Notes under the pieces: model-generated
The model's input: the letters and a program-made list of their open reading frames with translations, nothing else
Told to the model about the DNA's origin: nothing
Databases searched by the model: none
Assembly: GCA_028707255.1 (NCBI GenBank)
Contig: JAQTUQ010000007.1
Location: 209-64,208, forward strand
Origin: Dehalococcoidales bacterium
GTDB taxonomy: Bacteria; Chloroflexota; Dehalococcoidia; Dehalococcoidales; UBA5627
Length of the DNA: 64,000 bases
Direction of reading: 5' to 3'
Translations under genes and position numbers: made by a program
Shown: positions 6,223 through 41,768 of the stretch, in pieces
How the letters are laid out: every line of letters starts with the position of its first letter
How positions within the stretch are numbered: the first letter of the stretch is position 1

Positions 6223-7170
6223 TTAAATAACTCGCAACTTGCGCAGAAGCAGAAGGACGCCTAAAATAATGGTCAGCATCAGCCCGAAAACTATAAAAAC
6301 GGCATAGTCTGACTCGGCAAACGGCATATCGATATTCATGCCGTATAAACTGCCAACCACGGTTACAGGCAGCATAACCGTAGCAATAATCGTAAGTATT
6401 CTGATGGTTTCGTTAGTGCGATTGGTTGCCATGGAATCATGAGTATAGTTCAGACCTTCGATGATTTCCTTGTATTCATCCAGCCCGTCCCAGATTCTGT
6501 CGAGGTGGTCGACCATATCGCCGAAATAGACCGACATATCTATGTTTATAAAACGGTGGATTCGAGGCTCGAGCCGTCCGACAACCGCCCGCATCGGCCA
6601 GATTATACGGCGAAAGGCAATCACATCCCGGCGCAGACGGGATATCTCTCGAATAATCTGCCCCCTGCGCTCAGCAAGAATATTATCCTCAACGTCTTCG
6701 ATTCCGTCGCTGACCTTATTAAGTATCGGCTGGCAGTAATCGACAAGGCGGTCGAGTATGCGATACAGCAGAAAACCCGGCCCCTGCCCCAGGTACTCTT
6801 CACGCGATTCCTCATCGAGTTCGCATTCCCTGAAAAGTTTCACCAGCGGTTTTAAAACACCTTTATGTATCGTAATCAGGTAATCCTGCCCGATGAAAAC
6901 CGATATCTGGCTGGAGATGAGAACCTTTTCTTCTTTGCTGTAGATGGGGAAGTGGAAAACGATAAACAGGTAATCTTTATATTCGTCAATCTTGGGTCGC
7001 TGGCGGCGGCTTAAGGTATCGTCGAGGTCGAGCGGATGGAAATGATAATTTTCTGCCAGATAATCGATTTCACTTTGACCCGGAGGAGCGATATCTATCC
7101 AGGTCATACCCTTCCAGTCCAGTGTATCCAAATTCAATTTTTCTTCATTGACTTTCTGAACTTCTGCCAT
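6223..7170 (-). CDS. corA: magnesium/cobalt transporter CorA
   Basis: 315 aa with the YGMN motif (LYGMNIDMPF) before the last TM helix. Confidence 0.9.
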   Translation of the reverse strand: MAEVQKVNEEKLNLDTLDWKGMTWIDIAPPGQSEIDYLAENYHFHPLDLDDTLSRRQRPKIDEYKDYLFIVFHFPIYSKEEKVLISSQISVFIGQDYLITIHKGVLKPLVKLFRECELDEESREEYLGQGPGFLLYRILDRLVDYCQPILNKVSDGIEDVEDNILAERRGQIIREISRLRRDVIAFRRIIWPMRAVVGRLEPRIHRFINIDMSVYFGDMVDHLDRIWDGLDEYKEIIEGLNYTHDSMATNRTNETIRILTIIATVMLPVTVVGSLYGMNIDMPFAESDYAVFIVFGLMLTIILGVLLLLRKLRVI

Positions 7171-7482
7171 AAAGCCGTTTCCTTCGTAAGATAAACCTGA
7201 TTATTCTATCACATACTTTGCCGTTTAGCACCTGAATTGCTATAATAATGCTACAGAATTTAGTACTATATTATATTTTACTCCAATTTATTATTAAAAA
7301 TGCAACATCTTCCTTTAAGAAACCGCATAGTAATCAATATCAAAAAAGCGCTCGGAATGAACGTAATCCTGTGCAACAGCTGCAAGTGGAACTGGCGGAA
7401 TGCCTGTCATAACAGGGAACGCCCCAAAGCTGTTTATTGCCGGGAATACGAGAAGAAGTAGCGTTTGTTATCTTGTTTGTAT

Positions 7483-7511
7483 TTGACAACAGACCTGCAG
7501 GACAATACAAT
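7483..7511 (+). promoter_or_regulatory. sigma70-type promoter for the tRNA
   Basis: TTGACA (7483-7488), 17-nt spacer, TACAAT (7506-7511), about 30 nt upstream of the tRNA 5' end. Confidence 0.55.
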
Positions 7512-7541: not shown

Positions 7542-7613
7542 GGCAGCGTAGCTCAGAGGTAGAGCAGGGGACTCATAAGCCCTTGGTCACTGGTTCAATT
7601 CCAGTCGCTGCTA
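7542..7613 (+). tRNA. tRNA with CAU anticodon (elongator Met or lysidine-dependent Ile2); CCA not encoded
   Basis: Hand-folded cloverleaf. Acceptor GGCAGCG/CGCTGCT (G1-U72), D arm GCTC-AGAGGTA-GAGC, anticodon loop CTCATAA, T arm ACTGG-TTCAATT-CCAGT, discriminator A. Confidence 0.85.
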
Positions 7614-7695
7614 CTTTTTTATTCCTCTCAGAAACCGTGTCCTCAAATAACCAAAGAACTCTGACTGATTAATAACAGAATAAATATTTATGTAA

Positions 7696-8028
7696 TTAAG
7701 GTAAATTACAGAAAGCCAGTATCACCAATACTAACCACACAGCTGCAAAAAACATCGGGACAATATAAGTATGGTCAGCGTTGCTCTTATCTACTGTTCC
7801 TTTGGGATGCCAAAATAAGTTCCACATACTACCAAACATTTTCAATATCAAGAATAGAATATTACCCATGTCCATTTGTTCTTTTTCAATATCATATATT
7901 TTTTTATAGGGTGGTTTATCTCCAGCTTCAAGCGGTAGAGCTAATTCTTTTTCTTCCAAGGTACTGATATATAATTTGATCTTACAGATTATCCCAGTAT
8001 TTAGATAGTTTGTTGCAGCAAAAAGCAT
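7696..8028 (-). CDS. hypothetical membrane protein (possibly the 3' part of a frameshifted gene)
   Basis: 110-aa ORF in an AT-rich region. Its frame stays open upstream to 8175 and reads a TM-like segment HYIGIYWGYTIAGFVLS. Confidence 0.4.
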   Translation of the reverse strand: MLFAATNYLNTGIICKIKLYISTLEEKELALPLEAGDKPPYKKIYDIEKEQMDMGNILFLILKMFGSMWNLFWHPKGTVDKSNADHTYIVPMFFAAVWLVLVILAFCNLP

Positions 8029-8219
8029 AGATAAAACGAATCCTGCAATTGTATAGCCCCAATATATACCAATATAGTGCCCATTCCGGTTATCAGAGCC
8101 CCAAAAGCGGCAAGTAGGAAAGCTGTTGCCACAAGAAAAAAGTTTAACCTTTGAAATAGAAGTTTTACATTTCGATCAAGAAGGTCAATTGCTTTTTCAT
8201 AAGCCGTTTCATATTTCAC
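8001..8219 (-). CDS. hypothetical membrane protein (possibly the 5' part of a frameshifted gene)
   Basis: 72-aa ORF that overlaps 7696..8028 by 28 nt in another frame. Confidence 0.4.
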   Translation of the reverse strand: MKYETAYEKAIDLLDRNVKLLFQRLNFFLVATAFLLAAFGALITGMGTILVYIGAIQLQDSFYLCFLLQQTI

Positions 8220-8360
8220 TTTAAACCCCCCTTAATGAAGACCTCATATATTAGCGAATTTTACTCCGTGATTTGACCGATATCAATGGTTTTATCCCAA
8301 TAAGTACATAAACTATGCTATAATTTCCTACAAATTCCTTTCATTGGAGGAATAACTGTT

Positions 8361-9026
8361 ATGACAGCAGATGAATTCCTGAATATATTCTCAGCAGTTC
8401 TCGAACACGATACAGGTGCCTTAAAATGGGGCAATCCTGAACCGTGGATTCACGCTGAACTTTTTGCAGAATTCAATAGGCAATCTAATAAGACTCACTT
8501 AATACCCTTTGATAGCGAAGTTCCTTATGTCACACGTTTCCCTGTTTTGCCTCGTAAAGAAAATCACAAACACTGGAAGTATGCCGACCTTTGCCTATTA
8601 TCTGATACTGGAAATGATTGGTTTTGGTTTGAATTTAAAGTACGTCCAGTGGGGACTCCAAATAGAGATATCATAGCTTCTAAAGGAGCGAGAGATCAAT
8701 TTCGTAAAGACATAATAGCTTTACTAGGTTTCGAAGCCCAAGGCACAGCTGAACTTTGGGAAAATGAGCTAAATGTAAAATCTTACTGGACAGATAAATA
8801 CCTAAAACCACTTAAAGATAATGTTGGTAGTGGAATACATCATTTTTATTCAATTTTTTTGCAAATAGGCGGGGAACTTAATAAACAAATATGGGACATT
8901 GACGCATTAAAAAAGGAACTCAGTAACTGGTGTATTACACGAGGTGGATATGGTGATGAAACCCAGTGTATTAATTTATATAATGTAAATTTAGACGGTT
9001 ACTGTTTGGTTCTGGCTTATTGGTAA
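8361..9026 (+). CDS. hypothetical protein, possible PD-(D/E)xK nuclease fold
   Basis: 221 aa with RBS GGAGGA upstream. HAELFAEF ... YADLCLL ... WFWFEFKV gives an E / D / ExK arrangement. Confidence 0.6.
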   Translation: MTADEFLNIFSAVLEHDTGALKWGNPEPWIHAELFAEFNRQSNKTHLIPFDSEVPYVTRFPVLPRKENHKHWKYADLCLLSDTGNDWFWFEFKVRPVGTPNRDIIASKGARDQFRKDIIALLGFEAQGTAELWENELNVKSYWTDKYLKPLKDNVGSGIHHFYSIFLQIGGELNKQIWDIDALKKELSNWCITRGGYGDETQCINLYNVNLDGYCLVLAYW

Positions 9027-9075
9027 TTTTTATATTTAGACAGATAATATTTGAGGCTGTAACTCATTATATCAC

Positions 9076-9114
9076 GGGCACCAGTTCAATCCCAGTCGCT
9101 GCTACTTTTTTATT
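9076..9114 (+). repeat. tRNA 3'-end copy 1 (att-like)
   Basis: GTTCAATCCCAGTCGCTGCTACTTTTTTATT differs from tRNA 7592-7622 by 1 mismatch over 31 nt. Confidence 0.85.
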
Positions 9115-9550
9115 ATTTATTAGAACGTATCAATACGACCGGGATTTTTGAATTGCGTACTACTCGTTCCGCAACACTACCAATAAACCAATGTGCCGGC
9201 CCTGTACGTCCATGAGTTGACATGGCAATTACGTCGACTTTATTTTGTTCTGCCATTTTGAGAATTACATTTGCTGCAGATCCTTCTGCCAGTATTGCTG
9301 AAACCTTAAACCCCTCAGACTTCAACTGGGATTCTATTTCAAACATATATTTTTTACCGGCGGCTTCCTCCTCTGCAATCGTTTCTGCGGCAATACCGGG
9401 ATCTGAAAAAGCGAACTCCACAGCAGGATTAGCGACGACGTTTAATATGATTATCTCTGCTCCTTCAGAATATGCCAATGCTTTGGCATGAGGTAATACC
9501 TCTTCAGCTGTTTTAGACCCGTCAAGTGGTACCAGTATTTTTTTATACAT
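9113..9550 (-). CDS. universal stress protein (UspA family)
   Basis: 145 aa. MYKKILVPLDGS...STHGRTG...GSVAERVVRNSKIPVVLIR. Confidence 0.85.
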   Translation of the reverse strand: MYKKILVPLDGSKTAEEVLPHAKALAYSEGAEIIILNVVANPAVEFAFSDPGIAAETIAEEEAAGKKYMFEIESQLKSEGFKVSAILAEGSAANVILKMAEQNKVDVIAMSTHGRTGPAHWFIGSVAERVVRNSKIPVVLIRSNK

Positions 9551-9838
9551 AGATTTTCTCCTTTATTATTCTAGTTCATAATCAAAAAATAAATTCAAAT
9601 TAAATCCTGTACTGATCTACTAGTATTATACACCTAAAACATCACTACATTTACATCTTGGCCTTTGATTTTCTTAGGACTATCATCGCACGAAAATCGA
9701 ACAAGAAGAAGAACAGTTCCAATGTCTAAGACAGGCAAGAAATCGGCGTGATATAATAGTTATAATCAATTCTTCATCTTAAGTAGCAGCAATCGCAATA
9801 AAATAACTGGAAATATATCTAAAGGAGCGGTTAAAAGT

Positions 9839-10177
9839 ATGTTCACAAAAAGAATGTTAATATGCGTTGTTACAGGTGCTCTACTTGGAATCGTCTGTAT
9901 CGTGGGTGCACAGTTAAGGTCGGGATTTGAACATGAAGCTTCTTATCTTTTTTCTTTCTGGTTCAACCGTTTACTCCTGGGAATCGTCATCGGACTGGCA
10001 GCGTTTAAGCTTAGTACAATACAGGCAGTCGGGCGTGGAGCGCTTCTGGGTTTACTGGTTTCGTTCGCTTTTTACAGCTCCACCGGTTTTCAAGATGTTA
10101 TCGGATTCATTGCGGGGATAATATACGGCGTTATCATTGAGTACGCAGCGCTGAAGCTGGATAAGAAAACTGCATAA
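9839..10177 (+). CDS. hypothetical membrane protein
   Basis: 112 aa, about 4 TM segments, RBS AAGGAG upstream. Confidence 0.6.
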   Translation: MFTKRMLICVVTGALLGIVCIVGAQLRSGFEHEASYLFSFWFNRLLLGIVIGLAAFKLSTIQAVGRGALLGLLVSFAFYSSTGFQDVIGFIAGIIYGVIIEYAALKLDKKTA

Positions 10178-10322
10178 GGAAATTGCATCATTTTTACGAA
10201 TGGATAAACGGTCTTTTTAACAATTACTTCCAATATTTTAAGGTTGATATTGCCAGTAAATATAACAGAAAAAGGAAAGGAAGCAATTTAAGTCACTGCC
10301 ACTTTTTTCGGGAGGTATACGA

Positions 10323-10532
10323 ATGGAAAATGATGTTTCGATTTCCCTCGAACTGGCAAACAGGTTGTGCCAAGCTTATACAGAACAACATAAAGTCAGA
10401 CTGTTTAGTCAATGCTGGGGTTGTTTGAAATTTTCTAAAAACAACCCAGAAAAAATGTGCTTTTATAATCCTCCAAATAATGATAGCTGCCGATTTGTCA
10501 ACAAGTTATACAAAAGCCAAAAGGGAAAATAG
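10323..10532 (+). CDS. small Cys-containing hypothetical protein
   Basis: 69 aa. RBS GGGAGG 7 nt upstream. Preferred over the overlapping ORF 10183..10428. Confidence 0.45.
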   Translation: MENDVSISLELANRLCQAYTEQHKVRLFSQCWGCLKFSKNNPEKMCFYNPPNNDSCRFVNKLYKSQKGK

Positions 10533-10540
10533 CTAAGGCT

Positions 10541-10563
10541 TAAATCCAGTCGCTGCTACTTTC
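10541..10563 (+). repeat. tRNA 3'-end copy 2 (att-like)
   Basis: TCCAGTCGCTGCTACTTT is identical to the tRNA over 18 nt. Confidence 0.8.
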
Positions 10564-10638
10564 TATCTCAAATAGACATCGACCCCATAATTTGTTGTAT
10601 AATCTTGTGTATTTATTGGAGTCCTGATAGTAAAAAAT

Positions 10639-11142
10639 ATGCGCGTTATTCTTATCTGTAGCTTAATATTTACCATTTTATTCGGAGCCTTAATGTTATC
10701 GGCTTGCAGCTCGAATGCTGTAGCTAAAGACGGGGATACCGTCCGGGTAGATTACACTTTATCCCTGGCAGATGGCACTGTATATCAGACATCGGTCGGC
10801 AATCAGCCGCTCGAGTTCGTACTCGGAGCAGGCACTATGCTGCCTGAATTCGAAGAAGCCATCGTGGGGATGAAGGCCGGAGAATCCAAAACCATTACAA
10901 TTACGGCGGCGGACGCATACGGAGAATACAGGGAAGACCTTTTAATCACAGTAAAACGAAGCCAGATACAGGGCGGAGAAAATATAGTAGTCGGAGATTA
11001 CCTTACAATGACGGACAGCAGTGGAAGAACCTCTCAGGTTAAAGTTATCGATGTTTCCGATACAAACGTAACAATAGATGCCAATAATCCACTGGCGGGT
11101 AAGAATTTAACTTTTGAAATAGATTTACTAAAGATAATTTAA
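10639..11142 (+). CDS. FKBP-type peptidyl-prolyl cis-trans isomerase, lipoprotein
   Basis: 167 aa. Lipobox LMLSAC. DGDTVRVDYTLSLADGTVYQTS...LEFVLGAGTMLPEFEEAIVGMKAGE. Confidence 0.85.
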   Translation: MRVILICSLIFTILFGALMLSACSSNAVAKDGDTVRVDYTLSLADGTVYQTSVGNQPLEFVLGAGTMLPEFEEAIVGMKAGESKTITITAADAYGEYREDLLITVKRSQIQGGENIVVGDYLTMTDSSGRTSQVKVIDVSDTNVTIDANNPLAGKNLTFEIDLLKII

Positions 11143-11169
11143 ATCCCGGTCGCCGCTACTTTGTTTTTT
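11139..11169 (+). repeat. tRNA 3'-end copy 3 (att-like, divergent)
   Basis: TCCCGGTCGCCGCTACTTT matches the tRNA at 16 of 19 positions, followed by a T-run. Overlaps the FKBP stop codon. Confidence 0.65.
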
Positions 11170-11212
11170 CTGGTCTAATCATAAATAGTTCAAATGTATG
11201 GGGAAATTATAT

Positions 11213-11584
11213 CTATCCGGCAGATACAAACAAACCGGTAATAAAAGGTATTAACCAGATAAGCCAAACGAAAACGCTAAAATGATGGAAATTTACTATA
11301 GCTTTCTCATCCTTGCGTATAATTACAGCAGTTGCCCAAATAGCATGTATAAACATCAACAAAATTGCCAGTATACCCGTTATACCGTGTACATCAAATC
11401 CGATTTGTCCGGCGAATTCAAACATGATGCCTGTTCCGGCAGTATCAAAACATAACCCGCCCCAGAAAAAAAGTAAATGCCAAACCTTTAACCTGCCGGC
11501 AAATCTTTCACTCCAGACTCCTATAGAATATAGCAATAACGCTACAAATATTAATATAGAAGCAATAATAATTTGTTCTGGCAT
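11213..11584 (-). CDS. TIGR03987/HsmA-like small membrane protein
   Basis: 123 aa. YSIGVWSERFAGRLKVWHLLFFWGGLCFDTAGT...HGITGILAILLMFIHAIWA resembles that family from memory. Confidence 0.65.
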   Translation of the reverse strand: MPEQIIIASILIFVALLLYSIGVWSERFAGRLKVWHLLFFWGGLCFDTAGTGIMFEFAGQIGFDVHGITGILAILLMFIHAIWATAVIIRKDEKAIVNFHHFSVFVWLIWLIPFITGLFVSAG

Positions 11585-11719
11585 AACTTAATCCTTTTTA
11601 TATATACTCCTCGCGACCTTATGAGTCTGGTAATTAAGTTCGGTTAATTAGATCTTCTACTCATTTAAAGATTCTTTTTGTTCCAATAATATTTCAGAAG
11701 CTTCCTGGTAAGGCAAACC

Positions 11720-12625
11720 TCACGGCTTCGTTTTGCCGGCAGTATAGCATTTCATCGAGCTTCCTTCTATAATTTTCATCTTATTCAGGGCTGAAGGACC
11801 ATATTTTAATGTGTCGTAAACCATTATAGGCATGAAAGACCAAACCGGTTTCTCCAGATTTCCCGTATAAAAGGACAGGTCATCAGCCATATTGATTTCG
11901 AAAGTTTGATACGCTTTCTTTTTCAAATAATCGGTAGAACAAAGAGGATTACACCATTCGCAGGGAGTGGTCGCAATATAGCCAGCGCAATAAAAGGGAC
12001 GCACTTCATAAATAGAGCACACCCCTTCACGCAAGAACGGGCAGTATAGTTTTTCTTTCACGATTAAAATACGATTTTCGAGCTTAATCTGCCACTTCCC
12101 GGCAAGAGATGCGCTCAATAAATAGTTACAGCGATACTGTGATTCTTTTTTACCTGATGTATTATATGCAGACACGTTTTTATATCTTGATTGTTCCCTG
12201 AGAAGATTATCAACTTCTCTTAACTTTGATATCCAGACCGGATATATATCGATGAAGTAATTAAAGAGTTCTTCATTTTGATACAGGTAATGGACGATTA
12301 ATTCAATCTCCTGTATCGTAGCCCCAACCATTAATATGCAGCAGTAATTACAGCCGCTTGCGCAAGTAATGGCGCTGGATGTGGAAGAAGCAATTTCATT
12401 TTGTTTTCTGGACAATTCTGCAAAGATTTCCTGTTTCTTTAGCATATAACCAGTACAAAGATTCTTTCTCAGAATGCCAGTCTGCCCTGTGTAGGCGATA
12501 TCCCGATTAAGTTTAAAAAGTCCAATCTCGTCACCAAGCATATTAATGGAAGATGTACTGCAACAAAATTTATACCTCTTCCCGCTACCACACGGGCAAG
12601 GACTGTTTCTTCCGATTTTTTCCAT
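11720..12625 (-). CDS. YkgJ-type cysteine-cluster (CxxCxxCC) protein with N-terminal SEC-C motif
   Basis: 301 aa. SPCPCGSGKRYKFCC, then CASGCNYCC and CPFLREGVCSIYEVRPFYC. Confidence 0.7.
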   Translation of the reverse strand: MEKIGRNSPCPCGSGKRYKFCCSTSSINMLGDEIGLFKLNRDIAYTGQTGILRKNLCTGYMLKKQEIFAELSRKQNEIASSTSSAITCASGCNYCCILMVGATIQEIELIVHYLYQNEELFNYFIDIYPVWISKLREVDNLLREQSRYKNVSAYNTSGKKESQYRCNYLLSASLAGKWQIKLENRILIVKEKLYCPFLREGVCSIYEVRPFYCAGYIATTPCEWCNPLCSTDYLKKKAYQTFEINMADDLSFYTGNLEKPVWSFMPIMVYDTLKYGPSALNKMKIIEGSSMKCYTAGKTKP

Positions 12626-12797
12626 TCAATCACCCCAGGTTATTTTACCAACATTTGTTAAGGCTTTCTACCTTGATTTAATCCAGACAACATGCTAACC
12701 GCCAGCCTAATAATTTTGTTGCCTTATTTTTAACTTCAATTGTGAATTATGCTACTATAATATATAGTTCAATATACAATTGAAGGAGGCTTGTAAT

Positions 12798-13139
12798 ATG
12801 GACAGCCGCATAAAATACCTTGAAGAAATAGAAACGCTTGTAGAGGAGTTCAAAAGCGAACAGCCGGAAGCATATGCCGCCAGAGATAACTTCAACGATA
12901 TGATATATCAGGACGGCGCACTGAGTAACAAAATAAAGCGTTTGATGGCTATGTCTATTGCCGTACGAATAGAATGTATCGGTTGTATTATTTATCAAAC
13001 CAAACTTGCGGTAGAGGCCGGTGCTACCAAAAGAGAAGTAGTCGAAGCCGCATCTGTTGCCAGTGCTATGGGTGGTACCAGTGCTTCCTCCAATTTTCCG
13101 ATTGTTGTTCAAACAATGAAAGACCTTGGTAAGTGGTAA
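12798..13139 (+). CDS. carboxymuconolactone decarboxylase (AhpD-like) family protein
   Basis: Start chosen at the ATG after RBS GAAGGAGG. ...KRLMAMSIAVRIECIGCIIYQTKLAVEAGATKREVVEA has a CxxC in the AhpD-like position. Confidence 0.8.
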   Translation: MDSRIKYLEEIETLVEEFKSEQPEAYAARDNFNDMIYQDGALSNKIKRLMAMSIAVRIECIGCIIYQTKLAVEAGATKREVVEAASVASAMGGTSASSNFPIVVQTMKDLGKW

Positions 13140-13286
13140 TCAATCGATCGGATATGGATTTCGATATTTCCAGATAAAACATGGATACCCGGTGTATATC
13201 CTTTTGCGAGATTTACAGCTTTCCAGGGAGAGTATTTAAGATAACAATAGTAAACGAGAAATGGATTAAACGATTTGTTAGCGATG

Positions 13287-13313
13287 CAAATCCAGTCGCT
13301 ACTACTTTGTTTC
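13287..13313 (+). repeat. tRNA 3'-end copy 4 (att-like)
   Basis: TCCAGTCGCTACTACTTT has 1 mismatch to the tRNA over 18 nt. Confidence 0.75.
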
Positions 13314-13338
13314 ATTCCGGTGCTATATAATTATTTGT

Positions 13339-14307
13339 ATGAAACGCAAATATAAAATAATCATAGTATTTTTCTTGGCGATTATTTTCATACTGACTGC
13401 GCTACCTTATCTAATCCCGCTCTCCGATGTCGAAAGCGAAGCATCCATTCAGTCCCTGATGAGCCCGTCGGGAAAATTATTAAATATCGAATCCTATAAT
13501 ATTTATGTCGAGGAACATGGGCCGGCTACAGGAGAGGCTATCGTACTTATACACGGGTTCGGTGGTTCAACGTTTAGCTGGCGAAATAACATCCCGTTCC
13601 TCGTCGAGAACGGATACCGCGTTATTGCGCTGGATTTGAAAGGTTTCGGCCTTTCCAGCAGAGACTTTCAATCCGATTATTCGCATAAAGCACAGGCTGC
13701 AATTGTAAATAAGGTACTGCAACAAATCGGTGCAGAGCAAGCTTATCTGATAAGCCATAGTATGGGCAGCAGCGTGATGTTTCATTTTGCTCATTTGTAC
13801 CCCGAGAAAGTACTTGGAATGATTAGCGTCGATGGTTCTATAATTATAAAGAAAAGCTCGGATTTCCCAAATGTACTGCTGAACTTTCCGCCTTTTCAAA
13901 GATCGGGAAGAGTTATTTTAACCAACTACTTGAGTAAAGACAAATTCAGGTCGATATTTGAAAGCACATATTTTAATAAGGACATATTAAGTAAGGATGT
14001 TATCGACGGTTATTATGACAGGGCAATCAGAGTTGGATGGGAACAGTCGCTTCTAGCCATGGTTAGGGATATGCCTCAAAACGCTATCGACTTTCCACTT
14101 AATACGCTGATGTTTCCGGCTCTTATTATCCGCGGAGACAACGATACATGGGTTTCTCAAAAAGATTTGGACTCATGGCGGAATGAAATACCTGATGCCG
14201 AATTTAGTTTAATAGCTAGCGCCGGGCACGTTCCGATGGAAGAACAGCCTGCTGTTTTAAATGAAATAGTTCTGGATTTTTTGCGCAGCATCGGCAATTT
14301 TAGATAA
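13339..14307 (+). CDS. alpha/beta hydrolase
   Basis: 322 aa. N-terminal TM helix, HGFGGS oxyanion motif, nucleophile elbow SHSMGS. Confidence 0.85.
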   Translation: MKRKYKIIIVFFLAIIFILTALPYLIPLSDVESEASIQSLMSPSGKLLNIESYNIYVEEHGPATGEAIVLIHGFGGSTFSWRNNIPFLVENGYRVIALDLKGFGLSSRDFQSDYSHKAQAAIVNKVLQQIGAEQAYLISHSMGSSVMFHFAHLYPEKVLGMISVDGSIIIKKSSDFPNVLLNFPPFQRSGRVILTNYLSKDKFRSIFESTYFNKDILSKDVIDGYYDRAIRVGWEQSLLAMVRDMPQNAIDFPLNTLMFPALIIRGDNDTWVSQKDLDSWRNEIPDAEFSLIASAGHVPMEEQPAVLNEIVLDFLRSIGNFR

Positions 14308-14355
14308 AGCTTCACTCATCAGTTAAATCCCTATAGCTTCTGCTTTTTATATATC

Positions 14356-14383
14356 AAAGCCCGTCTGCCAAGAGACGGGCTTT
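14356..14383. terminator. bidirectional hairpin terminator between convergent genes
   Basis: AAAGCCCGTCT-gccaag-AGACGGGCTTT, a perfect stem. Confidence 0.6.
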
Positions 14384-14412
14384 AGAGTGAATTACCATTC
14401 GATTTAACAGCA

Positions 14413-14802
14413 TTACTCAATATTAACTGTGAAAACCTTCTGGTCTATGGATTCCTTTTCCCACGGCCTCTGGTAATCCAGTTTAATAGTGGCTTCACCG
14501 TTTTGCAGCGCTTTGAAACGCAGGTACTGAGTACCGCCGGCGCCTACAACCATAGCCTGCGAATCATCGGCTTCGTAGGTATCCTCCACCAGTTCAAGCT
14601 TGGCAGTATCATATGTCGCTATCCAGGTATAACCGGTGCTGGGATTGGAAGGCAGCGCGATTTGGATTATGAACTCACCGTTGGCATCCGTTTCGATAAT
14701 CTCCGATGGATTGCTGTATGCCATAACTTCCTGTGCCCCGCATCCGGCTGCCAGACAAGCTGTCGCCAGAATTACCGCTACCACTGCTAAAACTTTTTTC
14801 AT
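14413..14802 (-). CDS. chagasin-family (I42) protease inhibitor, lipoprotein
   Basis: 129 aa. Lipobox LAAGC and the NPSTGYTW motif. Confidence 0.8.
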   Translation of the reverse strand: MKKVLAVVAVILATACLAAGCGAQEVMAYSNPSEIIETDANGEFIIQIALPSNPSTGYTWIATYDTAKLELVEDTYEADDSQAMVVGAGGTQYLRFKALQNGEATIKLDYQRPWEKESIDQKVFTVNIE

Positions 14803-15022
14803 TTTATTGTCCCTCCTTTATATTTTTTGAGCCTCGACCTTTTTCACTATATATATACGATTTGCAAAAAGAAGTATTACATCCGGACAATAAAAAAAGT
14901 TTGAATTTTTATATGGATTAAGTAAAAAATATTATCGAAAATGATTGATTATTTGCGTTATCAGGTGTAATACTAATATATCCTAATCGTATATTAATAT
15001 AGGCAGTAAAAACATAAACAGT

Positions 15023-15556
15023 ATGCGAGAGACAAGACAAGGTTCGGAGAGTTCGGTAATTTTTGCAGAACTGTATGACGAGTTCATGCCGAAGGTTTAC
15101 CGTTATATCAGTTATAAAGTGAATAATGAGCAGTTGACAGAAGATTTAACATCGACCGTATTTGAGAAAGCGCTCGATAATTTCGAGAGATACAGCAGCG
15201 ATAAAGCGGCTTTCTCCACCTGGATATTTTCGATAGCGCGCAATACGCTTATTGATTACTACAGAACCAACGCAAAGAGACAAACAGAGTCTCTGGATGA
15301 GACCTTTGATATAGTATCGGAAGATGATTCTCCAGATGAGGAGCTGGAGAAAAAAGAGGAGTGGGAATATCTCAACAGATGCCTGATAGAACTCACGGCA
15401 GAGGAACAGGAAATCATCCGTCTGAAATTTGCCGCTGAGTTTAATAACCGTCAGATTGCTAAAATACTGGGACTTTCCGAGTCCAACGTAGGAGTAAAGC
15501 TTTTCCGGTCTTTAAAAAAGCTTGGAGAAGCTTTCAAGGAGTCCTATAATGGGTAG
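15023..15556 (+). CDS. ECF RNA polymerase sigma factor
   Basis: 177 aa. Sigma-70 region 2 (YRYISYKVNN...DLTSTVFEKA) and region 4 (NRQIAKILGLSESNVGVKLFRSLKKL). Confidence 0.9.
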   Translation: MRETRQGSESSVIFAELYDEFMPKVYRYISYKVNNEQLTEDLTSTVFEKALDNFERYSSDKAAFSTWIFSIARNTLIDYYRTNAKRQTESLDETFDIVSEDDSPDEELEKKEEWEYLNRCLIELTAEEQEIIRLKFAAEFNNRQIAKILGLSESNVGVKLFRSLKKLGEAFKESYNG

Positions 15557-16409
15557 AATTGATAAAACCGAAAAAGAATTTACAAAAGACCTAGACCGCT
15601 TGCTTTCCGGTAAGAAAATCGAAGATGACAGGCAAATAAGCGAGGACTATCGTTCAAATATAGAAACTGCCGGCAGGATAATCGAGTGCCGCCGGGAACC
15701 ATCAGATTCTTATAAAAAAGATCTGAAAATTCGGTTGCTTTTAAAATTGCGTGAAAAAGAAACGGCTGCGGCAAGCACACGGAAACCGTCTTTTTGGGAT
15801 AACTTGTTAAGTAATCTTTCGCCACGGCAAACGGCTTGGAGACTGGTTCCTGCACAGGTAGCGCTTGCCGTAATCAGCTTGCTGGCAATCTGGGGAATCG
15901 AATTAGTATCGAGGCCCGAACCGGTTGTAACCTGGCCTCCCGGAGGCTATTCGATGTTGGAACTGCTGTTTTTCTCGCTCGGAATATTGAATAATCTTTT
16001 CCTGATTTTTATCTTTCTGATTAGAAAGAACAGGTTAACCTTGCTGAAAAAAATCGGCTGGATTTATTTTCTGCTGGCGCTTCCGGCAATCTACGGCATC
16101 GTACTCACCGCACAGGCCCATCAAACCATTCAATACACTATCTTCCTGGGAATATTTTTACTCTTTATGCTGGTGGAATGGCTGTATGATTATGTTTTAA
16201 AAATCGACTTCCGCGGAAACTGGAAGAAGAACTGGAAATTGCTGGTTCCCTATTTGGCGCTCTACTATGCTGTGAACTACGGGTTTATCGTAATGAACTG
16301 GAAGGTCTCAATGCTGTGGGGAATTATCATGCTTGTCCTGTTTGCAATCCAGTTAGTTACAAACCTGATTAGTCATTCCAAAAACGGCAAACAAAGCATT
16401 ATGCAATAA
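15549..16409 (+). CDS. putative anti-sigma factor / polytopic membrane protein
   Basis: ATG overlaps the sigma gene stop (ATGG). Cytoplasmic N-terminus followed by about 6 TM helices. No zf-HC2 motif seen. Confidence 0.55.
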   Translation: MGRIDKTEKEFTKDLDRLLSGKKIEDDRQISEDYRSNIETAGRIIECRREPSDSYKKDLKIRLLLKLREKETAAASTRKPSFWDNLLSNLSPRQTAWRLVPAQVALAVISLLAIWGIELVSRPEPVVTWPPGGYSMLELLFFSLGILNNLFLIFIFLIRKNRLTLLKKIGWIYFLLALPAIYGIVLTAQAHQTIQYTIFLGIFLLFMLVEWLYDYVLKIDFRGNWKKNWKLLVPYLALYYAVNYGFIVMNWKVSMLWGIIMLVLFAIQLVTNLISHSKNGKQSIMQ

Positions 16410-16501
16410 ACTCTTGCGAACTTATTGACATCTACGTTTTTAGACCTGCGCCTGTCTCCCAGGTCATCATCAAACGCAAATCGAACAGGCTATATAATGG
16501 A

Positions 16502-16624
16502 CTAGCTCCTTTTTTCTTTGTCTTTACCGACTTTAGATAACAGGAAAATCATTAAACCCAGACATGCAAGGAAAACTCCGATTCCTATCGGCGAACCCCA
16601 TCCAAATGTTAGCATTAAATCCAT
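16502..16624 (-). CDS. small membrane protein (40 aa)
   Basis: Own translation MDLMLTFGWGSPIGIGVFLACLGLMIFLLSKVGKDKEKRS. RBS GGAGGG upstream. Below the ORF-track cutoff. Confidence 0.35.
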   Translation of the reverse strand: MDLMLTFGWGSPIGIGVFLACLGLMIFLLSKVGKDKEKRS

Positions 16625-16763
16625 TTTGCCCTCCAGATTTATCTATATCCTGTTGATACCCTATTAAAATGTTACCACACCGATAAAGATAAATGGTATA
16701 TTATTTTATGAAAGCATGCGCTGCTGCTTTTTTATTATTCATGAATTACTTTGCAAGGGGTAA

Positions 16764-17096
16764 ATGATTATGGATACAAATACACTGACAGGCAAAGCAT
16801 TGGAATTAAACAGTCTGATCGCTTATCAGGAAGGCTCGGTAGTATCCAGAACCATCGTCGATAAGAAAACGGGAACTATTACGCTGTTTGCCTTCGACAA
16901 AGAGCAGGGATTGAGCGAACATACAGCTCCGTACGATGCATTCGTATATGTAGTAGAAGGAGAAGCCGAAGTTACCATATCCGGTAAAAGCTTGCCGGTC
17001 AAACAAGGCGAATTTGTCATTATGCCGGCAAACGAACCTCATTCCTTAAGGGCAACACAGCGGTTTAAAATGACACTGGTAATGATTCGTTCCTAG
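16764..17096 (+). CDS. cupin domain protein
   Basis: 110 aa. ...GLSEHTAPYDAFVYVVEGEAEVTISG...PANEPHSL. Confidence 0.8.
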   Translation: MIMDTNTLTGKALELNSLIAYQEGSVVSRTIVDKKTGTITLFAFDKEQGLSEHTAPYDAFVYVVEGEAEVTISGKSLPVKQGEFVIMPANEPHSLRATQRFKMTLVMIRS

Positions 17097-17111
17097 CTTA
17101 TAATGAAAGAC

Positions 17112-17147
17112 GGCAGTTCGACTCCGGGTGCTGCTACTTCATTATTT
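17112..17147 (+). repeat. tRNA 3'-end copy 5 (att-like, heterologous T-loop)
   Basis: GTTCGACTCCGGGTGCTGCTACTTC matches the tRNA at 18 of 25 positions. Same GCTGCTAC end, and it shares the downstream ATTATTTAT with copy 1. Confidence 0.6.
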
Positions 17148-18013: not shown

Positions 18014-18198
18014 TGTGAATAACCCCTTTCGCTTATTTTTCTATAGTGCCAGATTGTTTCCAGTATTAACCCCTTATCGATTATTTGTCAATATTATTCT
18101 TATAACAGAGGTGATTGTTATCAATCATAGCAGTAATTAATGCTAATCCGAATTCACTGCGAACTTTCAGAAGTTACACGATTCCGGTCAATGCCGTT

Positions 18199-18753
18199 TT
18201 ATTTTCTGAGCCTGAGCTGATATCCCCTGTTTAAAACTATTGCGTCAAGCAGGGAATGCATCAATTTGGCTTTTTCCTTAATGGTCAGTGATTGTGACTT
18301 GATATCCGCTTCTGCCAGCGCACCCTCCAATTCTTTTATATCCAACACGGTTGCGGCGATGCAGTAATAGCTCTTGGAGCGGCCTTCGTTGAAATCTTTC
18401 AGCAATCTGAGCAGAAGATTCTCCCTGATTTTCTGTTGTTCGTTATATGCCTGAACGCCATAATTCCTGATATATGCAATGTCGTTTTCGAGCTTCTGAT
18501 AACACTTGAACGAATCGTACTCTTTACCGGCTTTGCGGTGTTTTCTCCATTTCTCGCAGGACTCATTTTCGCCGCAATCCCAGCAGAACTCGACGCCCTT
18601 TTTCTTTATGGCACAGGTAATAAACGGACATCCGAGAGCCATCCTGTCCTTACTTTTGCATCCGTTGCATTTACTGGCGGCATCGGTTTGATACATTGGA
18701 CAAAGCCTGCAAGAAAGCCCGCATATGCCAATTTCCGGGTAACTTATATCCAT
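18199..18753 (-). CDS. DUF3795-like Cys-rich protein
   Basis: 184 aa. ICGLSCRLCPMY...CNGCKS...CPFITCAIKKKGVEFCWDC. Confidence 0.65.
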   Translation of the reverse strand: MDISYPEIGICGLSCRLCPMYQTDAASKCNGCKSKDRMALGCPFITCAIKKKGVEFCWDCGENESCEKWRKHRKAGKEYDSFKCYQKLENDIAYIRNYGVQAYNEQQKIRENLLLRLLKDFNEGRSKSYYCIAATVLDIKELEGALAEADIKSQSLTIKEKAKLMHSLLDAIVLNRGYQLRLRK

Positions 18754-18967
18754 AGAAATATATTATACAACAACAATGCAATAAAGCTGCCTGTATTAGT
18801 TTGAGAAGGTATTTTTACCTCTAAAACGTTACTACAAAACATCTTACTCTTTCCTTTTTTCAATACTATAAGGATAAAACCACGATACTATCCCAACAAT
18901 CCGTATTGACAACGCATCCCGCACGGAGTAGATTTATTAGAAATTCGCTTTTAAAGGAGCTTATGGT

Positions 18968-39757: not shown

Positions 39758-40300
39758 CTACGGCAAACCGTATATCCCGGCGGCGCTGTCGAAGAAGATT
39801 TGAGCGTGGGGCGGGTCGTAGGTGTACACAACTAAAACAATCGCCAGCGCAACGAGAAGCAGTATAGCGACATAGTTCAAATATTTCGGCAGCGGGTCGA
39901 ACGTCATAACCCACGCGCCGACCAGTTGCCCGATAATAATCGCGCCGATGAAAATGGAGATATCCGCCACCGCTAACTGTTCACCAACCATGTAATAATA
40001 GGTATAAAAAACGGCGCCGATTAATAAAAGGATTAGAAGAACGGCAACTGCTTTGGCTATTATGAAATTATTGGCATGGTAACCGATATAGCGGTATTCG
40101 ATGATGGCGAATATCAGCATCGGGTACAGGATAACCTTGAAATGCTCCCAGATACTGTTGTTTACCGGCACAATCGCCCCGATAACATCAAACTCGCCGG
40201 TTAGGAAAAACAGGAAATGCCACAGGGTTGCGATAACGGCAACGCCGACGATACCCAGCAGTGCCCACTGGAAAACATATCCCCTGACTCGAGTATCCAT
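39758..40300 (-). CDS. DUF6512-like membrane protein
   Basis: 180 aa. PVNNSIWEHFKVILYP resembles DUF6512 from memory. Confidence 0.6.
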   Translation of the reverse strand: MDTRVRGYVFQWALLGIVGVAVIATLWHFLFFLTGEFDVIGAIVPVNNSIWEHFKVILYPMLIFAIIEYRYIGYHANNFIIAKAVAVLLILLLIGAVFYTYYYMVGEQLAVADISIFIGAIIIGQLVGAWVMTFDPLPKYLNYVAILLLVALAIVLVVYTYDPPHAQIFFDSAAGIYGLP

Positions 40301-40934: not shown

Positions 40935-41768
40935 TCAAGCGGTTATCAGAGCCAAAGCCAGCGCACCTGGTCCGGCATGTACGCCGAGGGCTGGCCCCAA
41001 CCTGGCTATTTTAGCCTTTTTACCGCATAAGGTTTCGAGCCGTTCAGCCAGCGCTTTGGCTTCATCCGGGGTGGTGGAATGCATAACGGAAATATCATCG
41101 ATAGCGCCCGCTTTTTCGGCATAACCGTAAAGAATTTCTATTGCCTTATCACGGCTGCGCGCTTTGGCAGCCGGCAGGAATTCCCCGTCTTTAAGCATCA
41201 GCAGGGGTTTGATATTCAATACATTACCAAGTAAGGCCTTCCCTTTGCCGATACGCCCGCCCATAGCCAGATACTTAAGGGTATCGAAGGCTGCCCAGAT
41301 ATGCGTGCGGTCAATTAACTGTTTAACTTGCTCGACCGCCTGCTGAAAATCCGTACACGACGCGACTATTTGAGCCGCTTTAATAACTATCAGCCCCACA
41401 CCCATCGATACCGACTGCGTATCGATTACTTCAATCGGACAACTTGGGGAAACTATATCTTTGCCGCGAAGTGCTGAATTAACAGTGCCGCTCAATTTGC
41501 TGGCGATATGTATAGAGATGATTGCGTCGGCATCTTTTGAGAGGTTTTTATAAACATCGACGAAATCCTGCGGGCTGGGTTGGGAGGTGGTGGGATGCAC
41601 CGGAAAATGCAATAACCTTTCGTAGAACTCGGATTCTGTAATGTCTATGCGGTCGCGATAGGTCTTGTTGCCGAATTGTACATAAACGGGAACTACGGTG
41701 ATGCCGAACTCCTCGGCCAATGATTGCGGGATATCGCAGGTGCTGTCGGTCACGATCTTGATTGCCAT
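40935..41768 (-). CDS. DegV family fatty-acid-binding protein
   Basis: 277 aa. IKIVTDSTCDIP...TSQPSP... Confidence 0.9.
   Translation of the reverse strand: MAIKIVTDSTCDIPQSLAEEFGITVVPVYVQFGNKTYRDRIDITESEFYERLLHFPVHPTTSQPSPQDFVDVYKNLSKDADAIISIHIASKLSGTVNSALRGKDIVSPSCPIEVIDTQSVSMGVGLIVIKAAQIVASCTDFQQAVEQVKQLIDRTHIWAAFDTLKYLAMGGRIGKGKALLGNVLNIKPLLMLKDGEFLPAAKARSRDKAIEILYGYAEKAGAIDDISVMHSTTPDEAKALAERLETLCGKKAKIARLGPALGVHAGPGALALALITA

Follow-up and report, generated by a model that had tools for sequence, protein, structure and literature searches.

A tRNA(CAU) gene followed by a probably additive array of small gene cassettes in Dehalococcoidales

What has placed a row of co-oriented copies of a tRNA 3' end behind a tRNA(CAU) gene, with short groups of genes and no recombinase between them? 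The question is raised by a stretch of 64,000 nucleotides from a Dehalococcoidales bacterium (GenBank assembly GCA_028707255.1, contig JAQTUQ010000007.1, positions 209 to 64,208), the whole of which was analysed and is called the window below. A first-pass annotation had noticed five such copies and had left the choice between decayed island remnants and cassettes served by an integrase encoded elsewhere. Comparison with related genomes makes serial site-specific insertion at this tRNA highly probable. The fuller reading, in which the locus is an additive island at one tRNA(CAU), built of integrase-less mini-cassettes on which an integrase would act in trans, is the one towards which the sequences lean; the earlier choice is narrowed, and mini-cassettes served in trans have some lead over stripped remnants of larger islands.

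Most Dehalococcoidia are uncultured, and their genomes are small and streamlined; what is known of how they take up accessory genes comes mainly from one genus and its ssrA islands. The locus described here represents a second, order-wide route, by which single stress, folding, hydrolase, regulator and membrane genes are stacked at one tRNA in units too small for an integrase.

The tRNA(CAU) gene and the repeats behind it

ARAGORN finds a single tRNA with anticodon CAT in the 64 kb, at 7542-7614 on the plus strand, and Rfam recognizes it at 7542-7613 with 65.6 bits. ARAGORN labels it tRNA-Met; elongator tRNA-Met and lysidine-modified tRNA-Ile2 are both compatible with the CAU anticodon. The gene lies beside that of the magnesium transporter CorA, an adjacency kept in dozens of Dehalococcoidales loci. 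Copies of its 3' end were scored with a position weight matrix for which 37 Dehalococcoidales loci (36 relatives and the window) supplied the tRNA ends. Unless stated otherwise, the bits given below are scores of this matrix, and L numbers denote the loci and contigs compared with the window.

6223-7170, minus strand: CorA magnesium transporter gene (Pfam CorA, 1.6e-66), the conserved anchor on the tRNA-proximal side
7483-7511, plus strand: promoter-like site of the tRNA, TTGACA-17-TACAAT (11/12; consensus match only)
7542-7614, plus strand: tRNA(CAU), the probable integration target (attB/attL; ARAGORN, Rfam)
9062-9114, plus strand: repeat c1, from the anticodon loop to the 3' end and T-run (class A; 38.6 bits)
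10279-10310, plus strand: weak decayed repeat AAGTCACTGCCACTTTTTT (11.0 bits; assignment uncertain)
10536-10568, plus strand: repeat c2, with similarity from the T-loop on (class B; 30.6 bits)
11136-11168, plus strand: repeat c3 (17.5 bits)
13282-13314, plus strand: repeat c4 (29.0 bits)
14320-14352, plus strand: decayed repeat c4b, CAGTTAAATCCCTATAGCTTCTGCTTTTTAT (repeat family D1, 73%; matrix score 3.6 bits)
16704-16742, plus strand: decayed repeat GCATGCGCTGCTGCTTTTTTATT (repeat families D3 and D4; matrix score 2.8 bits)
17114-17146, plus strand: repeat c5, the most distal (28.3 bits; identical copy in L001 at 18909), presumably the oldest displaced tRNA end

With up to three mismatches allowed, the 22-mer GTTCAATTCCAGTCGCTGCTAC has 3 matches in the window against 0 expected from 100 shuffles, and the 14-mer CCAGTCGCTGCTAC has 11 against 2.9 +/- 1.65 expected. 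Among the latter, the matches outside the tRNA and outside coding sequence with the fewest mismatches start at 9092, 10546, 11146, 13292 and 17124, all on the plus strand. These are the five copies reported earlier, and both their coordinates and their mismatch counts were reproduced: relative to the tRNA, c1 to c4 show 1 mismatch in 31 nt, 18 nt exact, 16 of 19 nt and 1 mismatch in 18 nt, and c5 has a different T-loop and the same GCTGCTAC end. A repeat finder independently grouped one seven-member family at 7591, 9082, 10536, 11136, 13282, 14320 and 17114. Strong matrix matches are confined to the plus strand between 7.6 and 17.2 kb, where clear copies score 17-39 bits; the minus strand of the 64-kb window has no match at 6 bits or more, and no further tRNA-end copies were seen between 17.2 and 41 kb. 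Searched at a permissive threshold, Rfam returned the true tRNA only and detected no fragment in the window.

A count of five is too low. With the sites at 10279, 14320 and 16704, the array has at least eight. Those at 14320 and 16704, whose scores are at background, were accepted because relatives keep better copies at these places: a homologous tRNA-like copy is retained behind the hydrolase gene of L001 at the position of c4b, and the counterparts of 16704-16742 in the alignment are the genuine tRNA 3' end in L006 and a better copy, CAGTCGCCGCTGCTTTTTTATT, in L001. Visual inspection had suggested two more decayed copies, around 11636-11660 and 12675-12700; they scored -22 and -24 bits and were dropped. 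The c4b region (14314-14352) reads CACTCATCAGTTAAATCCC, with ACTCAT joined almost directly to the T-arm, and looks as if the part comprising the anticodon stem and variable loop had been deleted.

The earlier statement that similarity always begins in the T-loop does not hold. c1 matches the tRNA at 81% over 53 nt, back to the ACTCAT of the anticodon loop (repeat family D2), with 21/22 positions identical from T-loop to end. Two kinds of copy can be told apart. Class A copies (window c1, L005, L007 and L128) match from the anticodon loop (ACTCATAA...), and their site reads GGCTGTAACTCAT...GCTGCTACTTTTTT; just upstream they share GGCTGG/T-AACTCAT in place of the tRNA's GCAGGGGACTCAT, a likeness that points to a common left part derived from an element. 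Class B copies, which include window c2-c5 and many others, match from the T-arm or T-loop only, and may be the product of a second enzyme crossing over in the T-loop or decayed forms of class A.

The acceptor stem itself varies. In the window (7606-7614) and in the tRNAs of L001-L006 it ends in CGCTGCT, so that G1 forms a wobble pair with U72; CGCTGCC (G1-C72) is the form in other Dehalococcoidales, and nearly all displaced copies in the window end in GCTGCTAC.

Cassettes in the window and in related genomes

The repeats delimit at least eight units in the window, of 1491, 1197, 257, 600, 2146, 1038, 2388 and 406 bp; decayed copies split what had been taken as a 1.4-kb interval into 1197 and 257 bp, and a 3.8-kb interval into 1038, 2388 and 406 bp. 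Their genes are as follows.

7615-9061, both strands: cassette 1, small membrane genes at 7696-8028 (minus) and 8001-8219 (minus), gene for a 221-amino-acid protein at 8361-9026 (plus)
9113-10177, both strands: cassette 2, universal stress protein gene at 9113-9550 (minus), gene for a 112-amino-acid membrane protein at 9839-10177 (plus)
10323-10532, plus strand: cassette 3, a single gene for 69 amino acids in a 257-bp unit
10639-11142, plus strand: cassette 4, FKBP-type prolyl isomerase gene in a 600-bp unit (Pfam FKBP_C, 7.8e-20)
11213-13139, both strands: cassette or cassettes 5, gene for a 123-amino-acid membrane protein (minus), SEC-C/CxxCxxCC gene at 11720-12625 (minus), CMD-family gene at 12780-13139 (plus)
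13339-14307, plus strand: cassette 6, alpha/beta hydrolase gene in a 1038-bp unit (Pfam Abhydrolase_1, 7.9e-32)
14413-16409, both strands: cassette 7, chagasin-type inhibitor gene (minus), ECF sigma factor and putative anti-sigma genes (plus)
16764-17096, plus strand: cassette 8, cupin gene in a 406-bp unit (Pfam Cupin_2, 2.6e-13)

The small membrane genes of cassette 1 show a weak match to 8xMP, below the cut-off. The 221-amino-acid protein has no assigned function; its homologues in another Chloroflexota contig (45% identity) also adjoin 3' remnants of a tRNA-Met. The FKBP cassette contains a conserved TTGACC...TATAAT-like stretch, and the FKBP stop codon falls within the 3' site in all three carriers (window, L001 and L002).

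That the last gene of each interval lies on the plus strand and ends near the repeat, as had been proposed, was borne out: the stop codons precede the repeat by 59, 7, -3 and 21 nt, and that of the CMD gene (13139) by about 146 nt. In base composition the cassettes (G+C 0.354-0.433) lie below both flanks (0.47), and single intervals differ only modestly from one another. Among the main non-overlapping open reading frames of the 64 kb, Pfam revealed no integrase, resolvase, transposase or excisionase and no protein with a PF00589 domain; tblastn with three integrases directed at this tRNA had no match in the window or in any array. The earlier observation that the intervals encode no recombinase is thereby upheld. 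Promoter and terminator scans of 7.4-17.4 kb gave no more sites than chance, and no terminator at a repeat.

The same locus was then followed in relatives. An exact-sequence look-up of the window's CorA matched no record. Homologues 55-90% identical to it occur in 80 genome contigs, of which almost all bear the label Dehalococcoidales or Dehalococcoidia, and 36/80 carry the same tRNA on the same side of CorA (ARAGORN). Co-oriented 3'-end repeats, downstream only, are present in 15/37 loci including the window. At 15 bits or more, the 37 loci hold 26 downstream plus-strand copies, of which 24 lie no more than 6 kb from the tRNA, against 0 upstream copies in 361 kb and 2 minus-strand copies in 601 kb. 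Arrays are found in L001, L002, L005-L007, L010, L020, L024, L044, L049, L051, L069 and L080, and also in the metagenome contigs L123, L124, L128, L133 and L139. Their repeats are spaced as follows.

L001: 645 bp
L002: 613 and 989 bp
L005: 1715 bp
L006: 418 bp
L007: 968 bp
L010: 369 and 885 bp
L024: 959 and 645 bp
L049: 433 bp
L051: 494 bp
L069: 522, 610 and 803 bp
L080: 295, 414 and 232 bp
L123 and L124: 320 bp
L128: 713 bp
L133: 623 and 374 bp
L139: 1050 bp

In total, 39 cassettes were delimited in about 20 loci, with lengths of 222-2388 bp and a median of about 620 bp; one extra unit of 5199 bp has undetected internal boundaries. Most cassettes consist of one plus-strand open reading frame, which starts 20-160 nt after the preceding tRNA end and, in most of them, stops -3 to about 100 nt before the next repeat. 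Among single-gene cassettes, about 19 have the gene on the plus strand and 2-4 on the minus strand. Minus-strand genes directly after the tRNA (in L006, L014, L016, L019, L038, L039 and others) were considered as possible integrases and proved ordinary by sequence; they include genes for DegV, a permease and glycerate kinase.

Differences between related genomes concern entire cassettes, and the breakpoints fall at the repeats. In L016 and L038, the orthologue of the window's DegV gene follows the tRNA directly, so that the whole of window 7.6-40.9 kb is extra relative to those genomes. L006 has one 418-bp cupin cassette between the tRNA and a 33-nt repeat, and then DegV; this cassette is the most distal unit of the window array, where its left boundary is the decayed copy at 16704-16742. 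Between the window and L001, whose core is about 84% identical, homology ends exactly at the tRNA end. The units specific to one lineage are those next to the tRNA (window 7615-10622; L001 11350-12694), and the distal cassettes are common to both, which is the polarity expected of insertion at the tRNA. Cassettes 1 and 2 and the SEC-C gene are absent from L001, and cassette 7 is shared with it. The FKBP cassette, fourth in the window, immediately follows the tRNA in L002 and occurs in L001 as well; the homologue of its site c3 survives in L002 and is degraded in L001. L001 has the hydrolase and CMD cassettes the other way round, with CMD behind the hydrolase gene, and the 3' site of the hydrolase gene moves together with its cassette. 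A gene for 72 amino acids recurs in L001, L002 and L133, in the last as a 374-bp unit between two strong repeats, and a gene for 137 amino acids lies in the first cassette of L051 and the third of L069. The segment holding the 221-amino-acid gene and its repeat is 90% identical to L005 2834-3695, against 82% for the core, and is the only cassette that seems younger than the core. Already small cassettes are flanked by near-perfect repeats of 33-45 nt in L007 (968 bp), L005 (1715 bp) and L006 (418 bp), with intact reading frames. The relatives thus do not all carry the same intervals, and the proposal of serial accretion at one tRNA is strengthened by these whole-cassette differences.

Several contigs end at this place. 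L015, L063, L066, L072, L122 and L149 end inside the tRNA 3' half, and L025, L073, L121 and L130 end within 100 nt after it. With 10/57 tRNA-reaching contigs ending in the tRNA or at most 100 nt past it, assemblies evidently break here, through either the repeat or strain variation.

The variable region of the window reaches past the array first described, to about 40.9 kb.

17147-40934: variable stretch of lower G+C with single accessory genes, in which neither repeats nor a recombinase were recognised; L001 and L002 share part of it
40935-41768, minus strand: DegV gene, the conserved distal anchor (Pfam DegV, 4.8e-83)

Distal to the last repeat, window 18096-18875 is a 780-bp insertion relative to L001 that holds one minus-strand DUF3795 gene. 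A 5.5-bit match at 18174 lies within it, and neither junction has a convincing att site; some single-gene turnover here therefore proceeds without tRNA-derived sites. Further on, the gene at 36672-39662 (minus strand) encodes a 996-amino-acid protein with helicase domains (AAA_11/AAA_12), a nuclease domain of PLD type and a zinc ribbon at the C-terminus. This gene adjoins a DUF6512 gene (39758-40300, minus strand) in the window's most AT-rich stretch (G+C 0.33-0.38) and looks like a horizontally acquired, defence-type gene. On the other side of the array, between CorA and the tRNA promoter, a cysteine-rich open reading frame of 53 amino acids (7300-7461, plus strand) has no Pfam match, and the stretch that holds it aligns continuously with close relatives.

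Integrases at the same tRNA and the origin of the cassettes

The alleles of the tRNA bear on where the crossover takes place. In L010, L123, L124, L133, L024 and L049, the T-arm allele of the displaced copy differs from that of the working tRNA, and the displaced alleles of these six loci serve as working alleles in other lineages. In the window, the c5 T-loop, TTCGACT, is that of the working tRNAs of L001 and L002; the window's own working tRNA has TTCAATT, and c1 has TTCAAT. Allele swaps of this kind are predicted if an incoming attP supplies the new 3' half, and they place the crossover upstream of the T-arm, at least in those events; the crossover point is read from where similarity starts and from the swaps. 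The 3' half of the working tRNA of the window is itself probably element-derived. As the arrays show, the 3' half of an essential tRNA gene is a mosaic that incoming DNA has replaced again and again.

The first-pass annotation had proposed a search for an integrase next to a tRNA. None is present in the window, and several were found at tRNA-Met elsewhere. A scan of IMG/VR with the tRNA 3' end led to three contigs (L110, L112 and L114) that hold part of a tRNA-Met, from its anticodon loop through its 3' end, in alleles of Dehalococcoidia; a gene for a protein of 303-323 amino acids follows at once on the same strand. These proteins have a SAM-like core-binding domain and a Phage_integrase catalytic domain (PF00589), and Pfam shows no match to an arm-binding domain in them. 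Core-binding and catalytic domains alone would fit short, simple sites that a circle of a few hundred base pairs could carry. The L112 site is internal to its contig, with the integrase on one side and a nuclease, a small protein and a cI-like repressor on the other. A homologue (34% identity) lies directly after tRNA-Met in L033, a metagenome-assembled genome labelled Dehalococcoides, and in L211, a phage-like contig, the integrase after tRNA-Met is 77% identical to that of L112.

The family comprises 1167 proteins at E<=1e-20 and is common in Dehalococcoidia. Members also lie directly after tRNA-Lys(ctt), tRNA-Lys(ttt) and tRNA-Ala(ggc), with an attR 4.6-5.2 kb downstream that begins at the anticodon loop. 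Three such integrase-bearing small islands have the order tRNA, leader and integrase:

L209, 7891-13135: tRNA, leader TTYNAAGCTAAA, integrase
L210, 7846-12734: tRNA, leader TTYNAAGCTAAA, integrase
L212, 7891-12545: tRNA, leader TTYNAAGCTAAA, integrase

Their cargo (a PAPS reductase with a HATPase_c_3 protein, and a DNA methylase) looks defence-related. The leader TTYNAAGCTAAA between tRNA and integrase is conserved. The att site of this family starts at the anticodon loop, the same point as in the class A copies of the arrays.

Two other integrase loci deserve mention. L203 (5890-6948) and L112 (6708-7800) encode viral integrases that are 54% identical and have conserved flanks on both sides of attP; L203 carries a 3' half of tRNA-Ala type and L112 one of tRNA-Met, and the target seems to have been switched by swapping the tRNA segment. 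In L068 (CAYNFT010000021.1, reverse complement, 12213-13090), a tRNA-Met 5' half up to ACTCATAAGC is fused to the open reading frame of a 289-amino-acid tyrosine integrase, which reads through the tRNA half from an ATG inside the tRNA promoter; the next 3 kb hold no tRNA 3' half. This arrangement looks like an element of opposite polarity that restores the tRNA at its far end, or like an integrase gene that overlaps its own att site.

The mechanism that we propose on these grounds runs as follows. A small circular DNA that carries a copy of the tRNA 3' part (attP) would recombine with the tRNA gene, so that the working tRNA takes its 3' end from the incoming copy and its former end is shifted downstream, to stand as a co-oriented repeat behind the inserted genes. 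As each insertion would displace the old 3' end, the newest units are expected at the tRNA and the oldest furthest from it. The inserted units would be mini-cassettes of one to three genes, 0.25-2.4 kb here, without a recombinase; they would bring their own promoter-like sequence, and a gene would end just before the att site. The enzyme would most likely be a simple Xer-like tyrosine integrase of 300-325 amino acids, which a phage or a small island with this tRNA as its target would provide in trans. By recombining neighbouring repeats, this integrase could also remove cassettes or change their order, and displaced sites, not being maintained after insertion, would decay. We infer that the cassettes entered as integrase-less circles and that the integrase family above, whose att sites have the same start point, acted on them. 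A stronger version, in which the locus works as an analogue of an integron and single-gene circles, each bearing a minimal site of half a tRNA, are captured, reshuffled and lost through a simple Xer-like integrase that resident phages or mini-islands supply in trans, is in our view a tentative idea and rather unlikely; if true, the cassettes would be a distinct mobile class and an order-wide gene pool, not debris, and the tRNA 3' half would be continually overwritten.

The most serious competitor to insertion in trans is that the cassettes are decayed remnants: full islands or prophages with their own integrase would have inserted, and deletion in streamlined genomes would have left the useful cargo on the attR side. 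We judge this possible, though short of probable. Elements with an integrase do insert at this tRNA, their integrase gene directly behind attL and their cargo on the attR side, and remnants have been reported elsewhere, as partial tRNAs and degenerated elements in Prochlorococcus islands (10.1101/2020.12.28.424599) and as ssrA islands devoid of an integration module (PMC3146451). A number of our observations weigh for remnants or against the trans-served reading. In the L112 phage, co-oriented genes stop some 50 nt short of attP, just as cassette genes stop before their repeats, and the orientation rule is therefore also expected of the remnants of phage right ends. Displaced sites decay (c3, c4b, 16704 and the FKBP site of L001) and are without selection of the kind seen for integron attC. 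For most shared cassettes, divergence matches that of the core (FKBP, 80.5% against 80.1% in L002; the cupin cassette, 75% against 73% in L006), and for most of the array an old, vertical inheritance is therefore conceivable. The anticodon-loop att of the identified integrase family has no match in copies c2-c5. The proteins of the cassettes have no tblastn match in 40 viral loci, and the 64 kb of the source genome supply no integrase, the candidates coming from other genomes and viral contigs; a second att copy in L112, which would reveal a phage-borne cassette, was not found. A metagenome scan yielded no same-species variant (best 89%), the closest relative having 90% CorA identity, and at strain level neither a circular cassette nor an empty site nor a deletion between repeats was seen.

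Set against remnants are four features of the arrays. tblastn found no integrase fragment in any of the 39 cassettes of about 20 loci, the conserved integrase leader AAGCTAAA follows no array repeat, and no intermediate forms were seen between the integrase-bearing elements of at least 4.6 kb and the mini-cassettes. Cassettes of 418-1715 bp with near-perfect repeats, which are presumably young, have complete reading frames and spacers of 20-160 nt, as is not expected of random deletions, and the swap of hydrolase and CMD, with its breakpoints at the sites, needs more than insertion and deletion. The lesser divergence of the 221-amino-acid cassette relative to the core in L005 likewise speaks for discrete integrase-less units. 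Ordinary homologous recombination, through the CorA-tRNA and DegV flanks or through shared cassettes, would make the repeats incidental relics. It could account for a variable 7.6-40.9 kb between genes that are adjacent in L016 and L038 and for variation beyond 17.1 kb without recognisable repeats, such as the indel at 18096-18875 with no att; we nevertheless consider it improbable, as array breakpoints coincide with repeats, the repeats are downstream-only and co-oriented in many lineages, and the displaced T-arm alleles mean that the tRNA 3' half was itself exchanged. Still less credence is due to an assembly artefact in which strain variants were chained at a shared tRNA-end repeat. The window probably stems from a metagenome assembly, and related contigs do break at the tRNA, as described above; the copies differ, however, the longest exact stretch shared with the tRNA being 23 nt (c1) and 18 nt (c2), so that collapse at usual k-mer sizes is unlikely, and independent assemblies made in other studies keep the distal cassettes with c5 (L001) and the FKBP site (L002). 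Just as implausible is that the repeats are selected RNA signals, such as tRNA-like terminators or processing sites, and not recombination scars. Each copy does stand just behind a plus-strand gene and is followed by a T-run, but terminator-like sites are not above chance, Rfam sees only the true tRNA, and orthologous copies decay. Folding like attC or like a tRNA terminator was also considered and rejected: c2-c4 are without the 5' half of the T-stem, and no hairpin is therefore possible.

If mobilisation in trans, the reading that we prefer, is true, cassette capture arose independently of integrons with a tRNA gene as its platform, the short-site tyrosine integrase is a candidate tool, and the frequent contig breaks at this tRNA are partly explained.

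Relation to known islands and to integrons

The first-pass annotation had likened the array to the tandem ssrA islands of Dehalococcoides. In Dehalococcoides mccartyi, repeated 3' fragments of ssrA and tRNA-Ala mark tandem islands (PMC2764846, PMC3146451), some of which have no integration module and were proposed to be cis-mobilizable (PMC3146451). The likeness stands in part. The host is itself one of the Dehalococcoidales, and the two systems share their class, tandem units downstream of a single-copy structural RNA gene, co-oriented 3'-end repeats, low G+C, strain-specific content and the occurrence of units without an integration module. The enzymes differ, in that the ssrA islands use serine recombinases and the integrases found here are tyrosine recombinases. 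The Dehalococcoides islands are larger and multi-genic, typically with a six-gene integration module and reductive dehalogenase genes, in contrast to the 0.25-2.4 kb units without recombinase in the window; they depend on the 540-amino-acid serine recombinase DsiB (with DsiA), a 20-bp repeat and insertion in the T-loop, as opposed to a tRNA(CAU) target, tyrosine recombinases of about 320 amino acids and att sites from the anticodon loop. The window shows none of the ssrA hallmarks that were looked for, with no tmRNA (ARAGORN) and no resolvase or recombinase family (Pfam).

Additive flexible islands formed by sequential insertion at a tRNA have been described in Alteromonas (PMC3698932) and, as fGI-2, in Methylophilaceae (PMC10872708). 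Sequential insertion at a tRNA and variable numbers of cassettes are common to them and to the present locus; unit structure, orientation rules, integrase source and reordering were not resolved in those reports, and here the units are resolved gene by gene across an order and a candidate integrase family is named. The tycheposons of Prochlorococcus combine a tyrosine recombinase, integration at tRNAs, tandem pile-up, partial tRNAs and fragmented integrases (10.1101/2020.12.28.424599). The array resembles them in its full and partial tRNA flanks, in older elements pushed inward and in a streamlined host without the usual gene-transfer tools. Tycheposons, however, carry their own integrase and modules for replication and packaging, of which the window cassettes have none. 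CIMEs (cis-mobilizable elements) are att-bounded segments that have no recombination or transfer genes and depend on the integrase of a related element (PMC5704250; invoked in PMC3146451). The cassettes are alike in lacking recombination and transfer genes of their own, and class A copies, unlike class B, appear from their sequence to start like the attR or attP of integrase-bearing elements. CIMEs are usually of several kilobases, derive from the decay of integrative conjugative or mobilizable elements (ICE/IME) and are single or paired; here there are at least eight units, down to a few hundred base pairs, and the phenomenon is order-wide at one tRNA.

The comparison with integrons is of another kind, as it concerns how the array works. 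Integrons consist of the integrase IntI with its attI site and of attC sites that are folded imperfect palindromes, and clusters of attC without an integrase are known as CALINs. Like an integron or a CALIN, the array has mostly single-gene units, reading frames that end at the site, one fixed end of addition, a variable order and no need for an enzyme within the array. Unlike an integron, it has no IntI or attI, its sites are tRNA 3' fragments that decay, and some cassettes have a promoter-like sequence of their own; the repeat finder reported no paired arms at the repeat sites of the window. We conclude that the window array is an additive tRNA island and not an integron. A limited literature search found no published description of the tRNA(CAU) cassette locus. 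Compared with the systems above, what seems new is the consistent single-gene scale of its units, the lack of recombinase traces, the use of one tRNA across an uncultured order and the matching family of simple integrases.

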